Notes: generated by a model from the sequence alone, not told the origin. A DNA stretch of 64,000 nt from Prevotellaceae bacterium (GCA_029226205.1 JAQXXT010000007.1:3921-67920), one strand, 5' to 3'. Positions 9,249 to 55,341 are shown, counted from the stretch's first letter. Numbers and translations: made by a program.

Positions 9249-9500
9249 ATGGAAAAGAGTAAGAAACAACTGTGGCACCCAATGACAGAAGTGCCGCCAA
9301 GCGGATGTATTGTGTATGATGCTCATACAAACCGCTTCTATGACACGTCGGTTTGGATAGGTAAACAGATTGGTGACCAGTATTGTCTTGACATTAATGG
9401 TCTTTATGTGTCGGCAAAGTATTTCACATGTTGGATCGACCGACGAACCTTCTTCAAAGAGACAGGCTTATCGGAATATTTGGATAAGACTCAAGAGTAA
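9249..9500 (+). CDS. Hypothetical protein
   Basis: WHPMTEVPP N-terminus. Confidence 0.6.
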   Translation: MEKSKKQLWHPMTEVPPSGCIVYDAHTNRFYDTSVWIGKQIGDQYCLDINGLYVSAKYFTCWIDRRTFFKETGLSEYLDKTQE

Positions 9501-9732
9501 TGGCAATAGAAGAGGGTAAAGACATTATGGCGGCCCACACCATGGAACTTCGCAAAATTCTAAAAGAGCTTTATACATTGAAGTCAGATGGAATTTTCGA
9601 GTTTGATGACAAGTATGGCCGGATTATTTTTCTGCCGAAGAAATAATAATCAAGGGCTGCATGGAAACATACATACAGCCCCATAACTCCTTCAACATCA
9701 TGGTTGACGAGCAATCATACTTGCAAAAGTAA
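9500..9732 (+). pseudogene. Frameshifted small gene
   Basis: MAIEEGKDIM...DKYG continues as DYFSAEEIIIKG...YLQK in another frame near 9618. Confidence 0.4.
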
Positions 9733-10824: not shown

Positions 10825-11129
10825 GCAATATCACTCTTCTTCACAAGTGGAACCTTCATGAGTTGGACTGCATAGTATGCGGCATCGATTTCAACGAGTT
10901 GTGCGGACGCTCTTTGAAAGATAAAAGTATAGACATTAATAAGGTTATCGACAAAGCTATCCGTGACAAGTTTGGGTGCAGCTATGAAGCGTTTGAAAAG
11001 ATTGCCTATACGCTTCTTGGATATACGCCGGTGATAGATGATTACGAGGGGCACAAGTACCATTTATTCGCCAAACAGGACCATAATGGAGTTAACCGTG
11101 TCATTATCCGCAAGGAGGTGGAGACATAG
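10821..11129 (+). CDS. Hypothetical protein
   Basis: Operon-packed ORF. Confidence 0.6.
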   Translation: MSNITLLHKWNLHELDCIVCGIDFNELCGRSLKDKSIDINKVIDKAIRDKFGCSYEAFEKIAYTLLGYTPVIDDYEGHKYHLFAKQDHNGVNRVIIRKEVET

Positions 11130-11134
11130 TATAC

Positions 11135-11265
11135 ATACAACATTCATCTGTATTAACCAGATTTACAAAAATATTTAAATGTATTAACATATTATATTTG
11201 CGCATTACAGATAAATGTTGTACCTTTGCATTGTCAGTAAGAAGGTAACGGTATGACCAACCGTC
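11135..11265 (+). promoter_or_regulatory. Self-complementary promoter plus AAGGTAAC-hairpin leader (same family as the 47.5-53.7 kb copies)
   Basis: tacaacattcatctgtatt / attacagataaatgttgta inverted repeat; TTTG..TACCTTTG; aaggtaacggt-atgacca-accgt. Confidence 0.75.
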
Positions 11266-11284
11266 AGTCAACAACGCCAAGAAT

Positions 11285-11545
11285 ATGGACGACAGGAAAG
11301 AAATCAATATAGCCTACGAACTCCGTGAGGTTCATATCAGCTCCTTAGTGCAAGGGGTACGGATGGAGCTGCTTGATCTTATCGACTATGCCAATAAACA
11401 TAATGGCATGGTTGAATTAAGTCACCTCTACGAGGAACTGAACGGACTCAGGAAGTTGTCGAACTATTATACCGCCAAGACGCTTGACGCCCTTGGCGAG
11501 AACTTCGAGGATAATGTAAATTTATGGAAAAATAAGAACAGGTAA
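11285..11545 (+). CDS. Hypothetical protein
   Basis: First ORF after the promoter. Confidence 0.65.
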   Translation: MDDRKEINIAYELREVHISSLVQGVRMELLDLIDYANKHNGMVELSHLYEELNGLRKLSNYYTAKTLDALGENFEDNVNLWKNKNR

Positions 11546-11547
11546 TT

Positions 11548-11832
11548 ATGAATCAGAAAGAAGTAAAAGAAGAAAATGTGAGACGAGTAACCCTCAATGC
11601 CGAGGAATGCCTGAAAGTAAAGGAAATTATAGATACTCTGAACGAGTATCTTGTTTCGCAGGATGCAACGGTCATAAAAGCGGGAGTAATCCTTTCTTCT
11701 ATTATTGCGATGGAAGCAGAAATGCTGCACTCCACTTACGGACTGGATAAGCAGCATTTCGTAAATTTTGTGGCCGACGGAGCACGTCACTCCAGCGTAT
11801 CCATTATCAGAACAAAAATGAAGGAGAATTAA
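11548..11832 (+). CDS. Hypothetical protein
   Basis: Operon-packed ORF. Confidence 0.6.
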   Translation: MNQKEVKEENVRRVTLNAEECLKVKEIIDTLNEYLVSQDATVIKAGVILSSIIAMEAEMLHSTYGLDKQHFVNFVADGARHSSVSIIRTKMKEN

Positions 11833-11834
11833 TT

Positions 11835-12296
11835 ATGAAAAAAATCATTGAGAAATTCCCAAGTGACAAGATCTTTGCTTGGGATGGAAGTGGTAACAGT
11901 ATCGGTGTGAAAGCGCCTGAATATATCATTCGCTATGAAAGTGATCATTCAAAAAATACATGGGACTATGCAGATGACTACAAGGAGGCGTTGAACATGG
12001 AGCCATATAAATCAGGGGCAGATAATACAATTCATATCCTGAATCTTCCGCTATCAGATTTCAATCTGGTACGTGCCCTCCGATTTGGCTGTAAAGACGG
12101 AGAAGTTTCAGCCACGGAGGCTATTGGTAATATTCTTGCTGTCTTGAATAAACGAAGTGGGGTCCTTTCAGACCAAGGATTAAAAATCTTTGCCCAAGCC
12201 GCATCCCTCTGCAATAACGATGAGGGTTACAACGACTTTGTAACTCTCATGTACAAACAGATGGAAGCCATGGAATCAACCGTGCAATGGATATAG
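11835..12296 (+). CDS. Hypothetical protein
   Basis: Operon-packed ORF. Confidence 0.65.
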   Translation: MKKIIEKFPSDKIFAWDGSGNSIGVKAPEYIIRYESDHSKNTWDYADDYKEALNMEPYKSGADNTIHILNLPLSDFNLVRALRFGCKDGEVSATEAIGNILAVLNKRSGVLSDQGLKIFAQAASLCNNDEGYNDFVTLMYKQMEAMESTVQWI

Positions 12297-14228: not shown

Positions 14229-14522
14229 ATGGAAATCAAGGATTTGGATAATGAGCATGTGAGGATCATCCTTTGCAAGACAGACAGGGAGAATGTGATT
14301 AAGATCGTCAGACTCATAGCGAAAATCGCCGACGCACACGCTCCCTCCGCAGCCCGTTTTGCGGGGTACATAGCAGGTATCCTCTCCTTATACGGAGACG
14401 TTTTGGGAGATGCGTCCGAACGAAGTAAGGAGGAGATTATCGACGAGGTAGCCACGATGGCCAAGAACAGGCAAATCTTTAAAAAGAAAGAGGAGGATTC
14501 TGATTATGAAGAAGAAAAGTAG
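14229..14522 (+). CDS. Hypothetical protein
   Basis: Operon-packed ORF. Confidence 0.6.
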   Translation: MEIKDLDNEHVRIILCKTDRENVIKIVRLIAKIADAHAPSAARFAGYIAGILSLYGDVLGDASERSKEEIIDEVATMAKNRQIFKKKEEDSDYEEEK

Positions 14523-14835
14523 AGAAGAACTGATTGAAGCCGCCGCAATGGAATGTGAGTGGCCGACTATATTCAAGGCAGGAGTGGAATGGGCTGACGC
14601 CCATCCCGTGCCATTGGTTGTGACGGACGAGATGTGTGAAAAGCGCCCTGTTAATGCTTGCGCCTTGTCCACGTTCACGGATGTAATGGTGTTCTTGAAG
14701 AAAAAATTCAGAATGTCGGATGATGACCTGCGTTTTGCCTTTGAGGCGGCCTTACAACAGTGCGTCCCTAACGCATTAAAGGAACTACAGGAATACATGC
14801 TCATGGAGCAATCCAAAAATCAACAGAAATCTTAA
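14506..14835 (+). CDS. Phage-like hypothetical protein
   Basis: FKAGVEWADAHP module shared with 10003 and 13864. Confidence 0.65.
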   Translation: MKKKSREELIEAAAMECEWPTIFKAGVEWADAHPVPLVVTDEMCEKRPVNACALSTFTDVMVFLKKKFRMSDDDLRFAFEAALQQCVPNALKELQEYMLMEQSKNQQKS

Positions 14836-47294: not shown

Positions 47295-47519
47295 TTATTT
47301 ATTTCTTACGAGCTTTGCCTTCTCATGTCTTTCGAAGTATTCAAGGATCTCAACCAAACCTTCCAAATTATTACCCTCAGAAGGCATTACAAAGTGATTA
47401 TCTTTTACTAATGTAAAAGACTTGTTTCCCGGGAACCATTCGTCTACACGAAGCCAAAACCCATACATGTTCAAGTAGGATTGAACTTTGTTAAGATCAG
47501 ATATGCTATTTACCTTCAT
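47295..47519 (-). CDS. Hypothetical protein (cassette array)
   Basis: Preceded by the hairpin leader and a promoter repeat. Confidence 0.7.
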   Translation of the reverse strand: MKVNSISDLNKVQSYLNMYGFWLRVDEWFPGNKSFTLVKDNHFVMPSEGNNLEGLVEILEYFERHEKAKLVRNK

Positions 47520-47800
47520 ACACTCAATGTTTAAATTGTGGGGAGTCGGTTAGGCCCTCCGTTTCCTTTTATCTATTGCAAAGGTACAACAATTATCTGT
47601 AACTGCAAAACGTTTGATGTTAATTACATATAAACGTAATGTTAAAGAATATTACAGATAAATATAACCCCTACAACTGGGATCACTGGGTAATCTATCA
47701 GCTACAAAACAACTTCAAACCTTTAACTTTACAACCGAAAAATCCGCACTACCCTTACGGACGGTACGGATCAATAACAACCTATACATTTTACTTGTAA

Positions 47801-48100
47801 TTAAATTTCAACGAATTTGATACCTACATGTCTATCTAAACATGTAGCGTCAACTATGTCTCCTTGCATGAGATTATTGATATTATCCATATAGGGGTCA
47901 GTTGGAACAATTCGTAACCCACCATCCGCCATAATTACATACCTCTCATTCTGCTCATCACCTTCACAATCTATAAAGAAGAAATCGATTTTTACATCTT
48001 GATATTTATCCAAAATTATGTCCCCGTCATGGCCTTCTTTATAGACACGAATGAACCTGCCTTTTAATCTGACATTATAATATTCTTCCTCGTTATACAT
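47801..48100 (-). CDS. Acidic hypothetical protein (cassette array)
   Basis: ORF track; perfect GC-rich hairpin upstream at 48115-48146. Confidence 0.7.
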   Translation of the reverse strand: MYNEEEYYNVRLKGRFIRVYKEGHDGDIILDKYQDVKIDFFFIDCEGDEQNERYVIMADGGLRIVPTDPYMDNINNLMQGDIVDATCLDRHVGIKFVEI

Positions 48101-48149
48101 ATAACATCGCTTTGTTTTCCTGCCCCTAGGATAGGGGCAGGAAAATCAT

Positions 48150-48479
48150 TTACCAATAAAGTTTTTTATCATCAACCTTGAAACTCACCTTACGTCTGCC
48201 ATAGCACTCCGTCTCATACATAATAGAATCGTCGGTATCTATATCATCATCGAAATAGAGTTTGATACGACTACCCTTTGCTGACTTGAGTAGTTGCAAG
48301 AGATAGGCGCAAGCCTTTGGAAGATAGCAGAGATAAGTCTTGTCCCCACTCTCGTCATAATATCCTCGTTTACCGAAGAGACGTACCCGATAGAGATCTT
48401 TTTGCTGAATCTTAAACGAGAATCGTTCAAGAAGATACTTCTTCAGCTCCACAAACTCAGTACAAATTTGTTCTGTCAT
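48150..48479 (-). CDS. Hypothetical protein (cassette array)
   Basis: Preceded by the hairpin leader. Confidence 0.7.
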   Translation of the reverse strand: MTEQICTEFVELKKYLLERFSFKIQQKDLYRVRLFGKRGYYDESGDKTYLCYLPKACAYLLQLLKSAKGSRIKLYFDDDIDTDDSIMYETECYGRRKVSFKVDDKKLYW

Positions 48480-48550
48480 ACACTGAATGTTTAAATGTTA
48501 TGGAGAGCTGGTTAGGCTCTCCGTTTCCTTTATATACTACACTTAGAATG

Positions 48551-49048
48551 TTATCCAATATCCACTATTACAGGTTCTCCATTAACTCTAACCTTTACAC
48601 AGGCAAACTCCATAGATCCATAGTCACTTGACCCTTCATCTTGAATCAATACCCCTTCTTCGTCAGATATTGATTCTGTGTTGACATCGGAAAGGTTAAA
48701 TTCATAATAATCATTATTATACTTAACCATACCATTATAATCTGCAAGCGCCTCCTCTTTGCTTAACGCACACCCGTGAATATAACAACCCGCTCCTTTA
48801 CGATCCAACACATTAGCAACTGTTACATACACATACTCTACACGTTCTGGAATAGAAAGAATCTCCTTATCCAAGCCGCTCTCTTCACCGCTTTCTCCTT
48901 TATCATAACGCTCATTAGCTTCATCCACTTCTTTTACAATCTTTGAAAAAAGATTGTCTGCCTCCTCTCTGTTATCCAAAGCCATGATTTTTAAAATTTC
49001 TCCATCATGGTTAAGGCACACACCATGTAAGAAAATTTGTATATCCAT
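48551..49048 (-). CDS. Strongly acidic hypothetical protein (cassette array)
   Basis: About 36 D/E vs 14 K/R by hand count. Confidence 0.75.
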   Translation of the reverse strand: MDIQIFLHGVCLNHDGEILKIMALDNREEADNLFSKIVKEVDEANERYDKGESGEESGLDKEILSIPERVEYVYVTVANVLDRKGAGCYIHGCALSKEEALADYNGMVKYNNDYYEFNLSDVNTESISDEEGVLIQDEGSSDYGSMEFACVKVRVNGEPVIVDIG

Positions 49049-49263
49049 AATCTACAATATTTAAATGTTGTGGAGGGTTGGTTAGACCCTCCGTTTCCTT
49101 TATCTATTGCAAAGGTACAACAATTATCTGTAATTGCAAAAACATTTAGTGTTAATTACATATAAATGTAATGTTAAAGAAAATTACAGATAAATGTATC
49201 TTCTGCAACTGGAATCCCCGTGCAGCCATCGATGCCCCAACCCATCTTCAAGTCTTCAATTTG

Positions 49264-49367
49264 ATGTTGTAGCGTTATGACATCCTAACATCATAACGCA
49301 ATAACATTACAACATCAATATGTTATAATGTCAGAACGCTATAACATCATAGTGTTCAGACGCCAAA
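49264..49367. repeat. Phased array of 13 degenerate 8-bp units
   Basis: atgttgta gcgttatg acatccta acatcata acgcaata acattaca acatcaat atgttata atgtcaga acgctata acatcata gtgttcag acgccaaa. Confidence 0.8.
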
Positions 49368-49420
49368 AGGGCAGCCACCACGGCTGCCCCCCAAAGGAAA
49401 CTTATCTAAACATCTAGTAT

Positions 49421-49711
49421 TTATGAATCACGAAAAATCACTGTCTTATATAACTGGAAAATCTCCTCAACAATGAGTTTATTGACAAGGCTGTCCTTGT
49501 ATGTAGGGATAATCGCACCATCATCATAAATGTATGCCACAGTTGTCCCATTCTCATCATCCATCCCGAATACGTCTATGCACCACGCCTGCTCCTCTGT
49601 ATCGTAATAGTCTGACCGTATTTCTGTAACCTCAAAAGGTATGGGCAAATTAATCGTCTCAAAATAAAGAAGTGTGTTCCGCACAGATCTCGGATATATC
49701 TTCTTTTCCAT
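49421..49711 (-). CDS. Acidic hypothetical protein (cassette array)
   Basis: Preceded by the hairpin leader; terminator at ~49365-49392. Confidence 0.7.
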   Translation of the reverse strand: MEKKIYPRSVRNTLLYFETINLPIPFEVTEIRSDYYDTEEQAWCIDVFGMDDENGTTVAYIYDDGAIIPTYKDSLVNKLIVEEIFQLYKTVIFRDS

Positions 49712-49780
49712 ATCTTCCAGAATTATGAGGGAGTGGTTAGCTCCCCCGTTACCTTCTATTCAAGAATACAACTTGTCGGG

Positions 49781-50071
49781 TTAATCCAACCGTTTTTTAT
49801 TCAGTACTTCGACACTTGCTATATTTTCAATATCAATATAATACGATCGTGTTTCTTCCACCACGCCACCCGATTTAGGCTCGTCCAAGTAAATATCCTG
49901 AAAGAACAGGACTCCATCCATAATCCGATGATTGGCAAATCCAATATTCGGAGTTTGATAATCTTCATCGTTGTCAATCTGAATTAACCTATCATTAGAT
50001 TTCAATCGGATATTCATTACGTCTCCGTACTTCATATTGTTTAACGCATGCTCAAAAACTCTTACGTTCAT
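49781..50071 (-). CDS. Hypothetical protein, possibly Sm/Hfq-like fold (cassette array)
   Basis: C-terminal YYIDIENIASVEV strand pattern. Confidence 0.65.
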   Translation of the reverse strand: MNVRVFEHALNNMKYGDVMNIRLKSNDRLIQIDNDEDYQTPNIGFANHRIMDGVLFFQDIYLDEPKSGGVVEETRSYYIDIENIASVEVLNKKRLD

Positions 50072-50195
50072 ACACTGAATGTTTAAATGTTTATGGAGGG
50101 TTGGTTAGGCCCTCCGTTTCCTTTATCTATTGCAACTGAGGCAACCACACAGATCCCTCAGACAGAGGGCAGCCTGCACTGCCCTCTATTTTAAA

Positions 50196-50720
50196 CTAAG
50201 CAGGAATCTTTGTTGGGATATAATATGTCTCATTCTCCTCGTCCCAAAGGTATTCGCCAAAAGCGTTATATCTCAACTCGTCTATATAATCGCCAGACTT
50301 CTCACCTACATAGCCACGGTACAACTCCATGGAACAGTCCTCCACCCAATTTATAATGGACTGGATTTCATCCTCGAAATATCGTTTACAGAGCTTTTTG
50401 ACATAAAAGCCAAAGAGATTAGTACCTCTCATCTTTTCAGTATAACTCAGCAGCTTTTCACAATCCTCACTCAGGCCATAATTAGCTTCGGAATTACGTA
50501 CCCCCTCCAAGAACAACTCATCGTCCAAAACACTTATACGACTAGGTTCAAAGAACCCGATGGAATAATCTATCGAGTCGTTTTCAAAGCATCTTATCTT
50601 ATCACTAATATACCGAAACTCAATATCCTGAATCAGATTGTCAAGCAACTCTCGAAGAGATTTACTCTCGTCAAGAATATTGATGATTTTCTCATCATCC
50701 AAATCTTTGATTTTTTTCAT
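50196..50720 (-). CDS. Acidic hypothetical protein (cassette array)
   Basis: D/E-rich; preceded by promoter and hairpin leader. Confidence 0.75.
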   Translation of the reverse strand: MKKIKDLDDEKIINILDESKSLRELLDNLIQDIEFRYISDKIRCFENDSIDYSIGFFEPSRISVLDDELFLEGVRNSEANYGLSEDCEKLLSYTEKMRGTNLFGFYVKKLCKRYFEDEIQSIINWVEDCSMELYRGYVGEKSGDYIDELRYNAFGEYLWDEENETYYIPTKIPA

Positions 50721-50923
50721 ACACTGAATGTTTAAATGTTGTGGAGGGTTGGTTAGGCTCTCCGTTTCCTTTTATCTATTGCAAAGATACAACAATTATC
50801 TGTAATATCAAAACATTTTGTGTTAACTACCTATAAATGTAATGTTAAGAAATATTACAGATAAATGTATCTCCTGCAACTGGGATCAACTGGCAGTCCC
50901 CGCCAAAATCTCTCTTCAATTTG

Positions 50924-51003
50924 ACTTTATAGCGTTATGATGTCTTGACATCATAACGATATAGCGTCTGGACGCTACAACATCAAAGCATCCAGACGCA
51001 AAA
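50924..51003. repeat. Phased array of 10 degenerate 8-bp units
   Basis: actttata gcgttatg atgtcttg acatcata acgatata gcgtctgg acgctaca acatcaaa gcatccag acgcaaaa. Confidence 0.75.
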
Positions 51004-51040
51004 CAAATGGGCTGCTATGGCAGCCCATTTGTCAAATAGC

Positions 51041-51190
51041 CTAGTAAATTCTGTACTCCATATCAATATGATAATCAATCATCCAGCCATGACCATAATG
51101 ATCCTCGTATTCATGGGGATCAACATCCAATTTTAAATCGGCGAATTCTTGAATATGTTTCCAAAATGTCTTCTTGCTTACTTCTTTCAT
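51041..51190 (-). CDS. 49-aa acidic/His-rich protein
   Basis: MKEVSKKTFWKHIQEFADLKLDVDPHEYEDHYGHGWMIDYHIDMEYRIY; terminator at 51003-51032. Confidence 0.5.
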   Translation of the reverse strand: MKEVSKKTFWKHIQEFADLKLDVDPHEYEDHYGHGWMIDYHIDMEYRIY

Positions 51191-51250
51191 AACTATTCCT
51201 TTTTATTGCCAAAGAAATCCATGTCTGTTTCCCAACATGGATTTCTTTAT

Positions 51251-51445
51251 TTAGTCTTCATCCGAACACTTCATACATCCACCCATCAACTGAAGATAGA
51301 TGTCTGTATACGTTTCCTTCTCACTTCCCTCACAAGCAATCATACCCTCAAGGAATTCTTCCTCAGCTTTGTCTCTTCGCATAATCCGTGTTCTGCCATA
51401 GCATGTGATCTCCACCATGTCACTGGCCTTACCTTTACTCCTCAT
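51251..51445 (-). CDS. Hypothetical protein (cassette array)
   Basis: ITCYG...FLEGMIACEGSE motif; hairpin leader. Confidence 0.7.
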   Translation of the reverse strand: MRSKGKASDMVEITCYGRTRIMRRDKAEEEFLEGMIACEGSEKETYTDIYLQLMGGCMKCSDED

Positions 51446-51492
51446 ATTGTCTTCTAGAATTGTGAGGGAGTGGTTAGCTCCCTCGTTACCTT

Positions 51493-51747
51493 TTATAGAA
51501 TGGTCAATCTTCCATTTATGACCGCCTTATCGTAGCCTTCTTTCTTGAGTGCTGCCTTTGCTCTGACAGAGTAGATCCGTGACTCGTACTCCGAAAGGTT
51601 ACTTCTGCTCTGCATTGGTCTGTTAGGTCTCATAACCTGCACCTTGTAGCTCTCCGCATAACAGATCCCCGTCTTCATGTAGTTTTGGACGGCTGCCCGA
51701 CTACTGAATGATCGTGACTTTACTACTTCGATTCTTGGATATTTCAT
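51493..51747 (-). CDS. Basic hypothetical protein (cassette array)
   Basis: Promoter and hairpin leader upstream. Confidence 0.7.
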   Translation of the reverse strand: MKYPRIEVVKSRSFSSRAAVQNYMKTGICYAESYKVQVMRPNRPMQSRSNLSEYESRIYSVRAKAALKKEGYDKAVINGRLTIL

Positions 51748-51952
51748 ACACTTAATGTTTAAATGTTATGGAGGGTTGATTAGGCCCTCCGTTTTCTTTT
51801 ATCTATTGCAAAGGTACAACAATTATCTGTAATAACAAAACATTTAGTGTTAATTACATATAAATGTAATGTTAAAGAATATTGCAGATAGATGTACCCC
51901 TTTGTACAAGAGCATAATTAATCTCGTACAAATCATCAAGTGACAAGTCATT

Positions 51953-52219
51953 CTAATCACAATGCCACATCTCTCCATCATTCGTATCAAGAACAAATCC
52001 GCCCTGATTGGTAAGAGTGCAAACACTTCCCTTTGCTTGTGTGCCATCTTCAAAATTTACAAGTACATCACGAAACCAAAATCCGGTTACCTCTAACATT
52101 TTTAAATCTTCATCGACCTCGGAGTAATGGTCAGCAACATAAGTATTAATTGCTTTTACCAACATTGTTCTAAAATTAGAAAGTTTACATCCTAAATCTA
52201 ACAAATCTGTATTTGTCAT
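51953..52219 (-). CDS. Hypothetical protein (cassette array), possibly prematurely stopped
   Basis: ATG ~10 nt after the hairpin; frame continues past the TAG. Confidence 0.6.
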   Translation of the reverse strand: MTNTDLLDLGCKLSNFRTMLVKAINTYVADHYSEVDEDLKMLEVTGFWFRDVLVNFEDGTQAKGSVCTLTNQGGFVLDTNDGEMWHCD

Positions 52220-52257
52220 TGTTTCCTGTGGAGGGGTGGTCAGCCCCTCCGTTACCA

Positions 52258-52548
52258 TTATTCATTTAACGCAAAATTCAAAACCTCTGTTTCGGTAGCA
52301 CTGCCTTCGTGATAACGCTTGGCAATATCACTATAGATATCAACAATTATGTCAATGCCCTCCGCTTCCTTGTCTTTCGGATAGTCGCAATATTCGTCTT
52401 TATTAAAAGCGTCCTCCCACAAAGCGTTCTCAGCTACAATTTTAAGAGTTGGCATACCATCTTCAATGCCATCTTCCTTACTCAGAAGTATATCCAATGC
52501 CTTATACGGCTTACCCTTATACCAATACGATGTCTTAACAATATTCAT
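52258..52548 (-). CDS. Acidic hypothetical protein (cassette array)
   Basis: Hairpin leader at 52563. Confidence 0.7.
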   Translation of the reverse strand: MNIVKTSYWYKGKPYKALDILLSKEDGIEDGMPTLKIVAENALWEDAFNKDEYCDYPKDKEAEGIDIIVDIYSDIAKRYHEGSATETEVLNFALNE

Positions 52549-52595
52549 TATATCAAGTATTATGGGGAGTCGGTTACACTCCCCGTTACCTATTT

Positions 52596-52790
52596 CTAAA
52601 AGCGTTCTATCTCATTCCGACAAACCTCGGCTTCGCCAAAGTCATCTGAGATATGTATGATGGAGTCTTCATTATCACCATCAATTTTGTCGATTGTCCA
52701 TATACGGCTTAAATCCCTGCTCTCCTGCTCGGGATCATACCATATCACGCAATCACCCTCCCGAATATCGTTTCCTAACTTATCTGTCAT
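52596..52790 (-). CDS. Small acidic SH3-like protein
   Basis: DKLGNDIREGDCVIW pattern. Confidence 0.65.
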   Translation of the reverse strand: MTDKLGNDIREGDCVIWYDPEQESRDLSRIWTIDKIDGDNEDSIIHISDDFGEAEVCRNEIERF

Positions 52791-52836
52791 AGTCGTATTT
52801 ATAAAGCAAGGGAGGGGATTCCCTCCCTTGTAATTA

Positions 52837-53592
52837 CTAAAGTTCTACAAGTCTTGTTGTAGCCTTAATGATAAGGTCTTTAAGCTGCTCCTTATCCAGC
52901 TCTGGCAACAAGTCAATCACCATAAAATTCTCGGTATCCTCGATGTCAATACCTTTCTTGGAAAGGATCGTCTTGATGTCAAGCGTTGAGAAGTCATTAT
53001 AACTTCTTCCCTTGTCTGCGTGACTTGGCTGACTGCTTGATGAGTTGGAGTTCTCCGAGCCATAGAACTCTCTTTCTCTCATCATTTCATCAATCTCCTC
53101 CGGTTCTCCGATACCGAGGATAGAGTCAATACGGAACTTTCTCTCTTCATTCTTGTCGGTATCGAAATAGATGAAATATTTTCCAGTTTCATCCACATTG
53201 TCTGAAATGAATCCGTGTGCATGGCGGATAGTCCCGTCAACCTTGCGGTACGTGAAAGATGTCGGCTCTCCAATCTTCCCATTCTCTTTCATGGTCTGCT
53301 TGAGCTTGACTACAAGAGCAAGACAAATATTGTGATGCTCGTCAACCGATTCCTTACGGACTTCTCCGACCTCTACAAGATTGTCGATGATGAAACATCT
53401 CCACCCCTTGCAGTCCACATCATAATACTTAAGTGTGTAGCTGCACTGGTTTCTGTTCGTGCCTTTGATCGTGTGACCTACTCCGTAGAGTGTACCCTCT
53501 GCGTGACGGATTGATCCGTCCTTCTTGCGGTACGTGAAGGACACAATACCCTTGTGAAGTTTCTCAACCAATGTTTTAAGCAAATTTTCCAT
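52837..53592 (-). CDS. Tandem WYL_2/DUF2693-like SH3 beta-barrel protein
   Basis: Two copies of SFTYRKxDGxIRHAxG...YxDxD....RxF. Confidence 0.8.
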   Translation of the reverse strand: MENLLKTLVEKLHKGIVSFTYRKKDGSIRHAEGTLYGVGHTIKGTNRNQCSYTLKYYDVDCKGWRCFIIDNLVEVGEVRKESVDEHHNICLALVVKLKQTMKENGKIGEPTSFTYRKVDGTIRHAHGFISDNVDETGKYFIYFDTDKNEERKFRIDSILGIGEPEEIDEMMREREFYGSENSNSSSSQPSHADKGRSYNDFSTLDIKTILSKKGIDIEDTENFMVIDLLPELDKEQLKDLIIKATTRLVEL

Positions 53593-54002
53593 ACAATGTT
53601 TATATGTTATGGGGAGTTGGTTAGGCTCTCCGTTTCCTTTATCTATTGCAAATATACAACAATTATCTGTAATTGCAAAACATTTAGTGTTAATTACATA
53701 TAAATGTAATGTTAAGAAATATTACAGATAAATGTAACCCCTGCAACATGATTAACGTGCAGATAATAAACTAAAAATATTCTTCAAGTCTTCAAGAGAA
53801 AACACACGCTGCCATCACGTTTAGTATGGATCACTTAGTTTGTCTTTACGTAAATGAGACTAACTCCAACAGGGTCTTGTTGAATGATACAATCCAGACA
53901 TGATAGAAGACTATTGTAACATGGCCAAAATATATGCCTACCCAGTAAAATCGAATGGAAAAATTTGGAAGATTCCCCAAAATATCCTACCTTTGCAAAC
54001 AC

Positions 54003-54159: not shown

Positions 54160-54195
54160 TTTGGCCAGTCAACATATTCTTTCTAACTTTGCAAA
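54160..54195 (+). promoter_or_regulatory. Outward-facing promoter near the ICE end
   Basis: TTTG ... TAACTTTG with no substantial downstream ORF before the boundary. Confidence 0.55.
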
Positions 54196-54357
54196 AGTTA
54201 GAAAGAAAGTAAGCAATATAAAAAGAAACCCTGCGGGCGTTAGGTTTGTACCAAATTTGTCCCACACAGTTGATACAATAATGATAAAATATTAATAAAC
54301 AACAAATTACAGAACAAGCGGATATAGTGTACGATAATTTCGGATAAACATAATACG

Positions 54358-54488: not shown

Positions 54489-55166
54489 ATGGAACCTATC
54501 ACATTGGAAAATTTCGAAAATACGTATATTGATCCCATTGAGCAGGCAGAGATTGACAAATTTGTCTGCAAGGAGATGGATCGTCAGATACACCGGTATA
54601 TCAAGGCCATGCACGGAACCAAAGGATATATGGAACGCTTCATCAAACGCCTTGATACGATGTCGCTGGAAGAGAAAGAACAAGCCATTGCCCGCTATAT
54701 CGATCTGAACCGTAAAGTCCTCGATGGCCTTGACTTCAAGATTGTTCTCGCCAGAGCCGTAGCCAACTACTGCGACACGTTCTCTTACATGCTCACGCTC
54801 ATCAACAACAAGCGGAAGATGGTCTACTATCTCCATCGCATCAAGGACACATATGTACAATTCCATGAAGTCTTTGAGGAGAATGGAAAATTTGGTATCC
54901 GTGACCATCATGGCAACGTCATCGTCAGACCCGTCTATGACTTCCTCCGTACACCTTATATATATGTAGACGATCTCATCAACGTCCCCATCATTGCAGA
55001 AAAGAATGGTAAGTTGGGCCTCATCCTCGCTGATGGAAAGGATACAGTTGTGGCCGATTTCGTCTTCGACGATATCTCTCTTCGTGATGAGCCACCCTAT
55101 TTCGAAGCCCGGAAAGGGAAGATGAAGGGTACGCTCGACTTCAACGGACAATTTGAGGAAATGTGA
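54489..55166 (+). CDS. Conserved hypothetical protein (WG-repeat-like C-terminus)
   Basis: NGKFGIRD..G, NGKLGLI, KGTLDFNG repeats. Confidence 0.75.
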   Translation: MEPITLENFENTYIDPIEQAEIDKFVCKEMDRQIHRYIKAMHGTKGYMERFIKRLDTMSLEEKEQAIARYIDLNRKVLDGLDFKIVLARAVANYCDTFSYMLTLINNKRKMVYYLHRIKDTYVQFHEVFEENGKFGIRDHHGNVIVRPVYDFLRTPYIYVDDLINVPIIAEKNGKLGLILADGKDTVVADFVFDDISLRDEPPYFEARKGKMKGTLDFNGQFEEM

Positions 55167-55260
55167 AAAAGTAAAGAAGTAAAAGAGTAAAAAAGTAAAA
55201 GAGTAAAAAAGGCGAACATCCAACGTTTAATTTTTTACTTTTTCACTTTTTTACTTTTAG
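55165..55260. repeat. Intergenic inverted array of 8-bp AAAGTAAA-type units
   Basis: (aaagtaaa/agagtaaa)n followed by (tttttact)n. Confidence 0.6.
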
Positions 55261-55341
55261 ATTTTCTTGTTTTTCTGCCGAAAAATGTTTAACTTTGCAA
55301 CTGCAAACATTTTAACCAATAAAAGTAAATAGATTTTGTCA

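Follow-up and report, generated by a model that had tools for sequence, protein, structure and literature searches.

The subject of this analysis is a stretch of 64,000 nucleotides (hereafter the window; C7:3921-67920) from a Prevotella-like metagenome-assembled genome (MAG) of 2.5 Mb in 124 contigs, estimated to be 87% complete. Positions 1 to ~54,200 of the window are spanned by a conjugative element of the Bacteroidota type, an integrative and conjugative element (ICE), in which an array of small genes is preceded by repeated, self-complementary units. Judged by their sequence, these units may well be conventional double-strand Bacteroidota sigma-A promoters, each equipped with three operator-like boxes for a shared candidate DNA-binding protein, a reading to which we give an even chance. 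The original prediction had proposed instead a Bacteroidota version of single-strand promoters of the Frpo type, with operators for a repressor as the alternative. Of the two, the alternative appears to fit better, in view of the three box copies per unit, the promoter in sense direction and the occurrence of units on both strands. In an evenly poised judgement, we rank the operator promoters first, relics of a fold-back promoter second and working single-strand promoters third.

The five near-identical units that had been reported at 47576-47676, 49107-49208, 50779-50879, 51806-51905 and 53646-53746 were all recovered at these positions. They form a family of 155-nt direct repeats with 70-91% identity, which reaches through a leader hairpin to the start codon, and three further copies bring the total in the MAG to eight units. 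Read along the minus strand, a unit consists of an outer arm TTGCAG-RRG-WTACA, TTTATCTGTAAT, the palindrome ATTACAT-TTAT-ATGTAAT, TTTG (-33), ATTACAGATAATTGTTG, TAnnTTTG (-7), the hairpin leader and the ATG. The -33 and -7 elements ascribed earlier to the sense strand were borne out, since the array units read TTTG-N19-TA(cc/tc/ta)TTTG and score 10/10 against the consensus. A perfect sense TTTG-N19/20-TAnnTTTG facing the genes was present in 11/11 copies examined, the best antisense score being 6-8 of 10. Both motifs of a Bacteroidota sigma-A promoter are therefore found at a spacing within 17-21 nt and on the same strand as the downstream gene, and the unit core aligns with housekeeping promoters of related genomes, e.g., tRNA promoters. 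Complementarity to the promoter's own upstream DNA is enriched in the units and not unique to them: they rank 3rd-91st among 307 consensus promoters of the genome, and in the same comparison back-to-back divergent promoters score equally high.

The boxes are 15-18 bp quasi-palindromes, ATTACAKATAAWTGT, with the core TACA-N6-TGT, and they occupy three positions per unit; the inverted ATTACAGATAA / TTATCTGTAAT boxes that had been described before are indeed present in the array units. The P box takes up the spacer from -33 to -7, directly adjoining the TA of the -7 element. The inner box (I), a perfect ATTACA-N6-TGTAAT palindrome, lies inverted 34 bp upstream of P, and the distal box (D), inverted as well, lies 62 bp upstream of P, the centre-to-centre spacings being 34 and 28 bp. 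What had been taken for an inner TTACAT/ATGTAA hairpin exists as the palindrome ATTACAT-TTAT-ATGTAAT, but is actually the third, middle copy of the box. Matches to ATTACAGATAAATGT within 2 mismatches numbered 16 in the window against 0.19 expected, all of them inside units, and 21 of the 26 genome-wide box matches fell on the two contigs of the ICE. I and D share 14 of 15 positions in equal orientation, a resemblance predicted for operators, whereas a hairpin requires only that D match P and that I match itself. The long-range self-complementarity of the units arises because P runs in the opposite orientation to D and I. Of the 9 box types (P, I and D of the array, of the unit at 11 kb and of the sister lineage L046), 8 retain the TACA-N6-TGT core, the inner box of the 11-kb unit, which reads TAT, being the exception, and the outer box positions drift independently (ATTACA in the MAG; GTTACA, AATACA and AGTACA in L046). 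Thus a dyad box at fixed positions, with one copy over the core promoter, has been kept as sequence across paralogues and lineages, at several promoters, on both strands and on two contigs, as is characteristic of operators.

Within the array all units lie on the minus strand. The outermost one, unit 5, precedes the tandem WYL_2 gene and occupies 53608-53755, with -33 at 53676-53679, -7 at 53649-53656, P at 53659-53673, I at 53693-53707, D at 53721-53735 and the leader hairpin at 53608-53647. Unit 4 (51767-51915) has -33 at 51836-51839, -7 at 51809-51816, P at 51819-51833, I at 51853-51867, D at 51881-51895 (reading ATTGCAGATAGATGT) and the hairpin at 51767-51806. Unit 3 (50740-50888) carries -33 at 50809-50812, -7 (TATCTTTG) at 50782-50789, P at 50792-50806, D at 50854-50868 and the hairpin at 50740-50779; its inner box is degraded, with more than 2 mismatches. 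In unit 2 (49069-49216) the corresponding positions are 49137-49140 (-33), 49110-49117 (-7), 49120-49134 (P), 49155-49169 (I), 49183-49197 (D) and 49069-49108 (hairpin), and in unit 1 (47537-47685) they are 47606-47609, 47579-47586, 47589-47603, 47623-47637, 47651-47665 and 47537-47576. The 11-kb unit (11125-11284) belongs to the plus strand, with an inverted D at 11140-11154, -33 at 11197-11200, P at 11204-11218, -7 at 11221-11228 and then a small leader hairpin; an open reading frame (ORF; 11285-11545) starts with the ATG at 11285 and is followed by more plus-strand genes. Left of the window, a full minus-strand unit at C7:404-569 stands ahead of a DUF2958 gene. The eighth unit is located at the end of C88, the second contig of the element, on the plus strand (C88:48007-48115); it begins directly after a DnaJ gene and keeps P and I, with D, the distal arm, absent.

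If the boxes are operators, a single ICE-encoded DNA-binding protein would recognise them and jointly control a minimum of eight promoters, distributed over both strands of the element. Repression would be the probable mode, with occupancy of P occluding the core promoter and I and D helping cooperatively. Entry of the ICE into a cell devoid of the binder would then cause a burst of expression of the small accessory genes and their later shut-down, that is, zygotic induction. A candidate binder, by proximity only, is an XRE/HTH_3 protein of 147 aa with a C-terminal coiled coil, encoded on the minus strand at C7:903-1346 (locus L014), 2.6-3 kb left of the window, where it adjoins the unit at C7:404. 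It has one close homologue, with 86% identity and an identical recognition helix, which holds the equivalent place in the L046 lineage and is again followed by a unit; this lineage is the only other one with window-type units. The XRE gene is divergent from an operon made up of a 69-aa gene, an HTH_17 gene, DUF7833, DUF6633 and a primase-like gene, and the intergenic region contains the 21-bp palindrome AAATCAA-N7-TTGATTT. The layout of this region resembles a lysogeny-type switch in an ICE.

Several observations weigh against the operator reading and its candidate binder. By its position the XRE gene resembles a cI-type repressor of the divergent operon, its promoter region is free of the box and carries the different palindrome AAATCAA-N7-TTGATTT, and the more distant XRE homologues have no TTACA-N6-TGTAA sites nearby. 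In the MAG the distal arm has some complementarity to the -7 element beyond the box, and in the MAG copies the fold of the template strand is 0-2.9 kcal/mol more stable than that of the sense strand; operators leave both features unexplained. Only two lineages carry window-type units, and few independent sequences consequently stand behind the conservation arguments.

The residual complementarity and the folding of the template strand bring the single-strand interpretation into play. Promoters of the Frpo type, which act on single-stranded DNA (ssDNA), are large stem-loops that rebuild both -35 and -10 and are inactive as double-stranded DNA (dsDNA) (PMC9849209, PMC12672017). With such geometry, the gene-distal arm of the transferred (template) strand has to contain the consensus boxes, which, as duplex, then face away from the genes. 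The window units have their consensus on the sense strand, directed into the genes, which in silico makes them normal dsDNA promoters that should be active as duplex. Were they nonetheless Frpo-like, D would pair with P on the incoming plus strand, the -7 bubble would be closed by TTGCA:TGCAA, and RNA polymerase would start before complementary-strand synthesis; we consider this improbable. The hairpins as such are real in the MAG copies. Folding each unit as ssDNA, the check suggested along with the original prediction, gave the array units -12.9 to -17.5 kcal/mol on the plus strand (z -2.9 to -5.4 against shuffles) and, slightly worse, -12.5 to -16.0 kcal/mol on the minus strand, and all window copies together -12.9 to -19.5 kcal/mol (z -2.9 to -6.2). 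Folding of the template strand matches or slightly exceeds that of the sense strand, the mismatches are clustered at the -7 box, and the array, with its small orphan genes beside the element end, looks like one of establishment genes. Homologous arrays of relatives, moreover, have convincing candidates for fold-back promoters in the equivalent position.

Folds better than shuffles are at the same time modest in energy: -9 to -19.5 kcal/mol compares with -42 to -68 kcal/mol for the hairpins of relatives and with -112 to -121 kcal/mol for the Frpo regions of the F plasmid, and the copies of the sister lineage L046 (-8.6 to -11.1 kcal/mol, z -0.7 to -2.5) are near chance. A folded strand was expected to rebuild the promoter duplex with mismatches at -7. 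Pairing over 11-15 nt of the box proved robust and the mismatches do cluster at -7, but -33 lies unpaired outside the stem in every fold, so that the arrangement of an Frpo, with both boxes rebuilt in the stem and the consensus on the transferred strand, was not found. Between the outer arm and the -7 element, complementarity is marginal in 6 units (p 0.01-0.06); in 4 others, among them all three L046 copies, it lacks significance. The arm that would serve as non-template in a folded template strand reads TATCTTCTG, TATCTCCTG, TAACCCCTG, TAACCCCTA or TACCCCTTTG; it has no -33, and TTTG occurs in the 51806 copy only, where a 2-nt insertion shifts it. Where copies differ, the substitutions are one-sided; they occur in both strand directions, with no consistent preference for either strand. 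The element is transferred as one strand, and units on opposite strands, such as the plus-strand unit and the minus-strand units, therefore cannot all have their template on it. A relaxase or an origin of transfer (oriT), from which the transferred strand could be assigned, was not found in the 87%-complete MAG with the PF03432 profile and with tblastn using the relaxase, Rep3 and MobC of relatives. For the window units the Frpo-like reading thus fails on the sense consensus, the arm lacking -33, the units on both strands, the C88 copy without a distal arm, the weak hairpins and the origin of the self-complementarity in three boxes.

The Frpo idea is much better suited to the homologous arrays found in other Prevotella elements than to the window. 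In the L046/L073 lineage, whose WYL_2 protein shares 81% identity, the units are of the window type. More distant lineages (L049-L064) have a similar small-gene array at the element end, which points inward to Rep3_N, a MobC/NikA-like gene and a PF03432 relaxase, and which carries a different repeated unit, an imperfect palindrome of ~200 nt that matches itself on the reverse strand (L049:7546-7843, 9305-9602, 11609-11906 and 14233-14564, with equivalents in L050-L064). These hairpins fold at -42 to -68 kcal/mol. RNAalifold predicted 34 pairs, 21 of them with compensatory changes, and 93.2% of cells were paired against 80.3 ± 0.8 when shuffled (0/500) and 37-50% when the partner was slid; the apical arms differ among copies of one element and retain their complementarity. 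A canonical sense promoter was found in 0/31 distinct copies of this type. The antisense promoter score was 10/10 in 19 of these copies and 9/10 in 11, and for most copies (17 of those scoring 10/10) the position of the site within the gene-distal arm is constant. There TA[CA]CTTTG is the best-conserved block of the unit, and the opposite arm always has a bulge of 1-3 nt inside the -7 box. A weak sense candidate (TTTG-N21-TACACTTG) does lie just outside the hairpin in some copies. The template strand folds better in 30/31 copies, which is about the expectation from base composition; since shuffles share a strand bias of ~2 kcal/mol, fold energy by itself says little about which strand folds. 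With their Frpo layout, the L049-type units are strong candidates for fold-back (Frpo-like) promoters.

The presence of the two unit types in homologous arrays raises the question of descent. The window units might derive from a fold-back promoter like that of the relatives, the proximal arm now being a perfect duplex promoter and the distal arm decaying. In that case the inverted repeat would be devoid of present function, and the units would have spread by duplication within the array. This relic explanation seems to us doubtful, if better placed than a working single-strand promoter. In its favour, the layout, in which -7 occupies the base and -33 a more inward position, mirrors that of the relatives' units, the difference being which arm is perfect. 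The distal outer arm is variable and marginally complementary, lost in C88 and near chance in L046, and the 51806 copy still reads TACC(CC)TTTG in antisense. Decay of a hairpin, however, would not be expected to yield three copies of one box; the unit types share no sequence homology beyond the promoter consensus, D and I are well conserved within and between lineages, and the palindrome's end is also the boundary of the unit. There is also a slim chance that the units are dual-mode, a D:P stem with an open -7 bubble allowing RNA polymerase to start on the incoming strand ahead of complementary-strand synthesis and a repressible duplex promoter serving later on, as a flipped derivative of the fold-back promoters of the homologous Prevotella arrays. 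If true, the two unit types would together illustrate how single-strand and double-strand promoters can interconvert naturally in Bacteroidota.

Other structural roles appear more improbable still: a priming site of the ssi kind on a transferred sense strand, an RNA hairpin for processing or termination in read-through transcripts, or an attC-like recombination site. If the sense strand is the one transferred, the perfect promoter would indeed form the non-template arm, and Frpo was first described as a site of primer RNA synthesis, according to PMC12672017, which cites Masai and Arai 1997. The units also stand at boundaries like those of cassettes, and the repeats are points where assemblies break. 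Weak folds with an inconsistent strand bias speak against such roles, which would leave the third box and the plus-strand unit unexplained. The integron attC-like version was set aside, as no integrase adjoins the array in the window and five units for ~16 genes are too few per gene.

The array that these promoters are predicted to drive (47295-53592) comprises ~16 small ORFs, all on the minus strand and served by units 1-5. It is headed by a tandem WYL_2 protein of 251 aa (52837-53592), the array's one family match; searches of the array proteins against Pfam, NCBIfam and PHROGs gave nothing beyond WYL_2 and one PHROG of unknown function. WYL_2 has many relatives, all of them in Prevotella, the sole such case among the array proteins whose relatives were searched, and for the 174-aa array protein this search found none. 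Prevotella also supplies the nearest protein relatives. Most array ORFs are preceded by the leader hairpin GGAGGG-N9-CCCTCC, of which 11 copies occur at 47537-53647 of the window, some of them before genes that have no promoter unit. In its fuller form, GGAAAC-GGAGGG-N9-CCCTCC-ACAA, the hairpin stands 20-25 nt 5' of most array ATGs and is found in L046 and L049 as well; its stem covaries among copies, and assemblies break at it. Immediately upstream of unit 2 are the iteron-like repeats ATAACGCTATAAC / ATGATGTTAT (49253-49354). Comparable ATAACGYTATAAC / ATGATGTTAT arrays, partly inverted, lie upstream of some units and 3' of the terminator of the preceding operon, namely at 50913-50968 (upstream of unit 3), C7:600-760, L046:11150-11200 and L073:10660-10850. 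In three genomes of the same genus (L065-L067) another promoter with a leader hairpin of the array type is divergent from a P-loop (ParA-like) gene, and the near-palindrome AATATTTTTAAGCTTAAATATTT overlaps its -33 region.

The gene content of the ICE in the window includes TraM, TraN/DUF4138, a TraG-type VirB4, DUF4134/4133 pilins, ParA, topoisomerase III and a Toprim primase-like protein. To the right of the element follow chromosomal gdh, two tRNAs and uvrB. The second contig, C88 (48 kb), encodes the coupling protein, M48 and M23/glucosaminidase enzymes, Dam and four giant polyvalent proteins (1334-3435 aa) with ArdC-N, MPTase, N6 methylase, ART and MutS_I domains, and ends with Fic, DnaJ and then the promoter unit. 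Family searches with the large unannotated ORFs returned zero matches. Near the right end of the ICE (window 54185-54216) TTTCTTTCTAACTTT-N-GCAAAG is present as an inverted repeat, TTTCTTTCTAACTTTTGCAAAGTTAGAAAGAA, and the motif recurs in the intergenic region between the XRE gene and the early operon (L014:1440-1475) as well as in L046 and L073. Directly before gdh, at 55155-55274, A-rich 8-bp tandem repeats (GTAAAAGA-like) are opposed by an inverted T-rich copy; contig depth there is very high in pig-gut runs, which indicates a widespread repeat.

The DNA runs holding the region are from pig gut, and no RNA run is listed as holding it. In the Logan contigs of four of the pig-gut runs the sequences break at the repeats, leaving joints too short-sided to inform on structure or transfer. 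A search for the units in 400 family and 400 genus genomes returned only generic promoter or leader-hairpin matches, and Rfam gave zero family matches to the units. The two-box pattern produced one chance match across genome contigs, in a Burkholderiales MAG. Of two metagenome scans, the first was empty and the second yielded three unrelated single-box promoters.

The units share several features with F Frpo1/Frpo2, and with ssi1-3 and the class 2/3 ssDNA promoters of IncI1 pESBL/ColIb-P9 (PMC9849209, PMC12672017, PMC11541004), as these too are repeated non-coding units before small establishment-type genes of a conjugative element, self-complementary and with mismatches at the downstream promoter box. 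There are also differences: Frpo and ssi rebuild both boxes in large stem-loops that are inactive as dsDNA, whereas the window units have a perfect duplex promoter, a -33 that is not rebuilt, weak folds and copies on both strands. It is the L049-type units that match the Frpo/ssi layout. In the F plasmid, which served as control, the leading genes point to oriT and the T-strand of the Frpo regions folds 7-9 kcal/mol better than the sense strand; a simple -35/-10 scan of these regions (up to 3 mismatches) found no boxes, and the control therefore supports only the points on T-strand folding and gene direction. The literature searched contained no description of a single-strand (Frpo-type) promoter in Bacteroidota, nor of back-to-front hairpins for the phylum. 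The present case illustrates that self-complementarity around a promoter does not suffice for calling it single-stranded; decisive are the strand of the consensus boxes and the rebuilding of both boxes in the stem. As the two unit types head homologous WYL_2-led arrays, they offer a matched pair for studying the timing of arrival genes in gut Bacteroidales elements.

Regulons with multiple operators are familiar from mobile elements, among them lambda OR1-3, ImmR of ICEBs1, SetR of SXT, KorA/KorB of RP4 and, in control of anti-restriction genes, ArdK/ArdR of pKM101. The window units resemble them in having several partly palindromic box copies at fixed positions, one over the core promoter, at many promoters and on both strands. 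A further likeness is the presence of an XRE-type gene in the element, and the expected outcome would be an expression burst once a naive cell is entered. The units differ from those regulons in their Bacteroidota -33/-7 elements and in the packaging of the candidate boxes into a 155-nt cassette, present in eight copies and provided with a leader hairpin.

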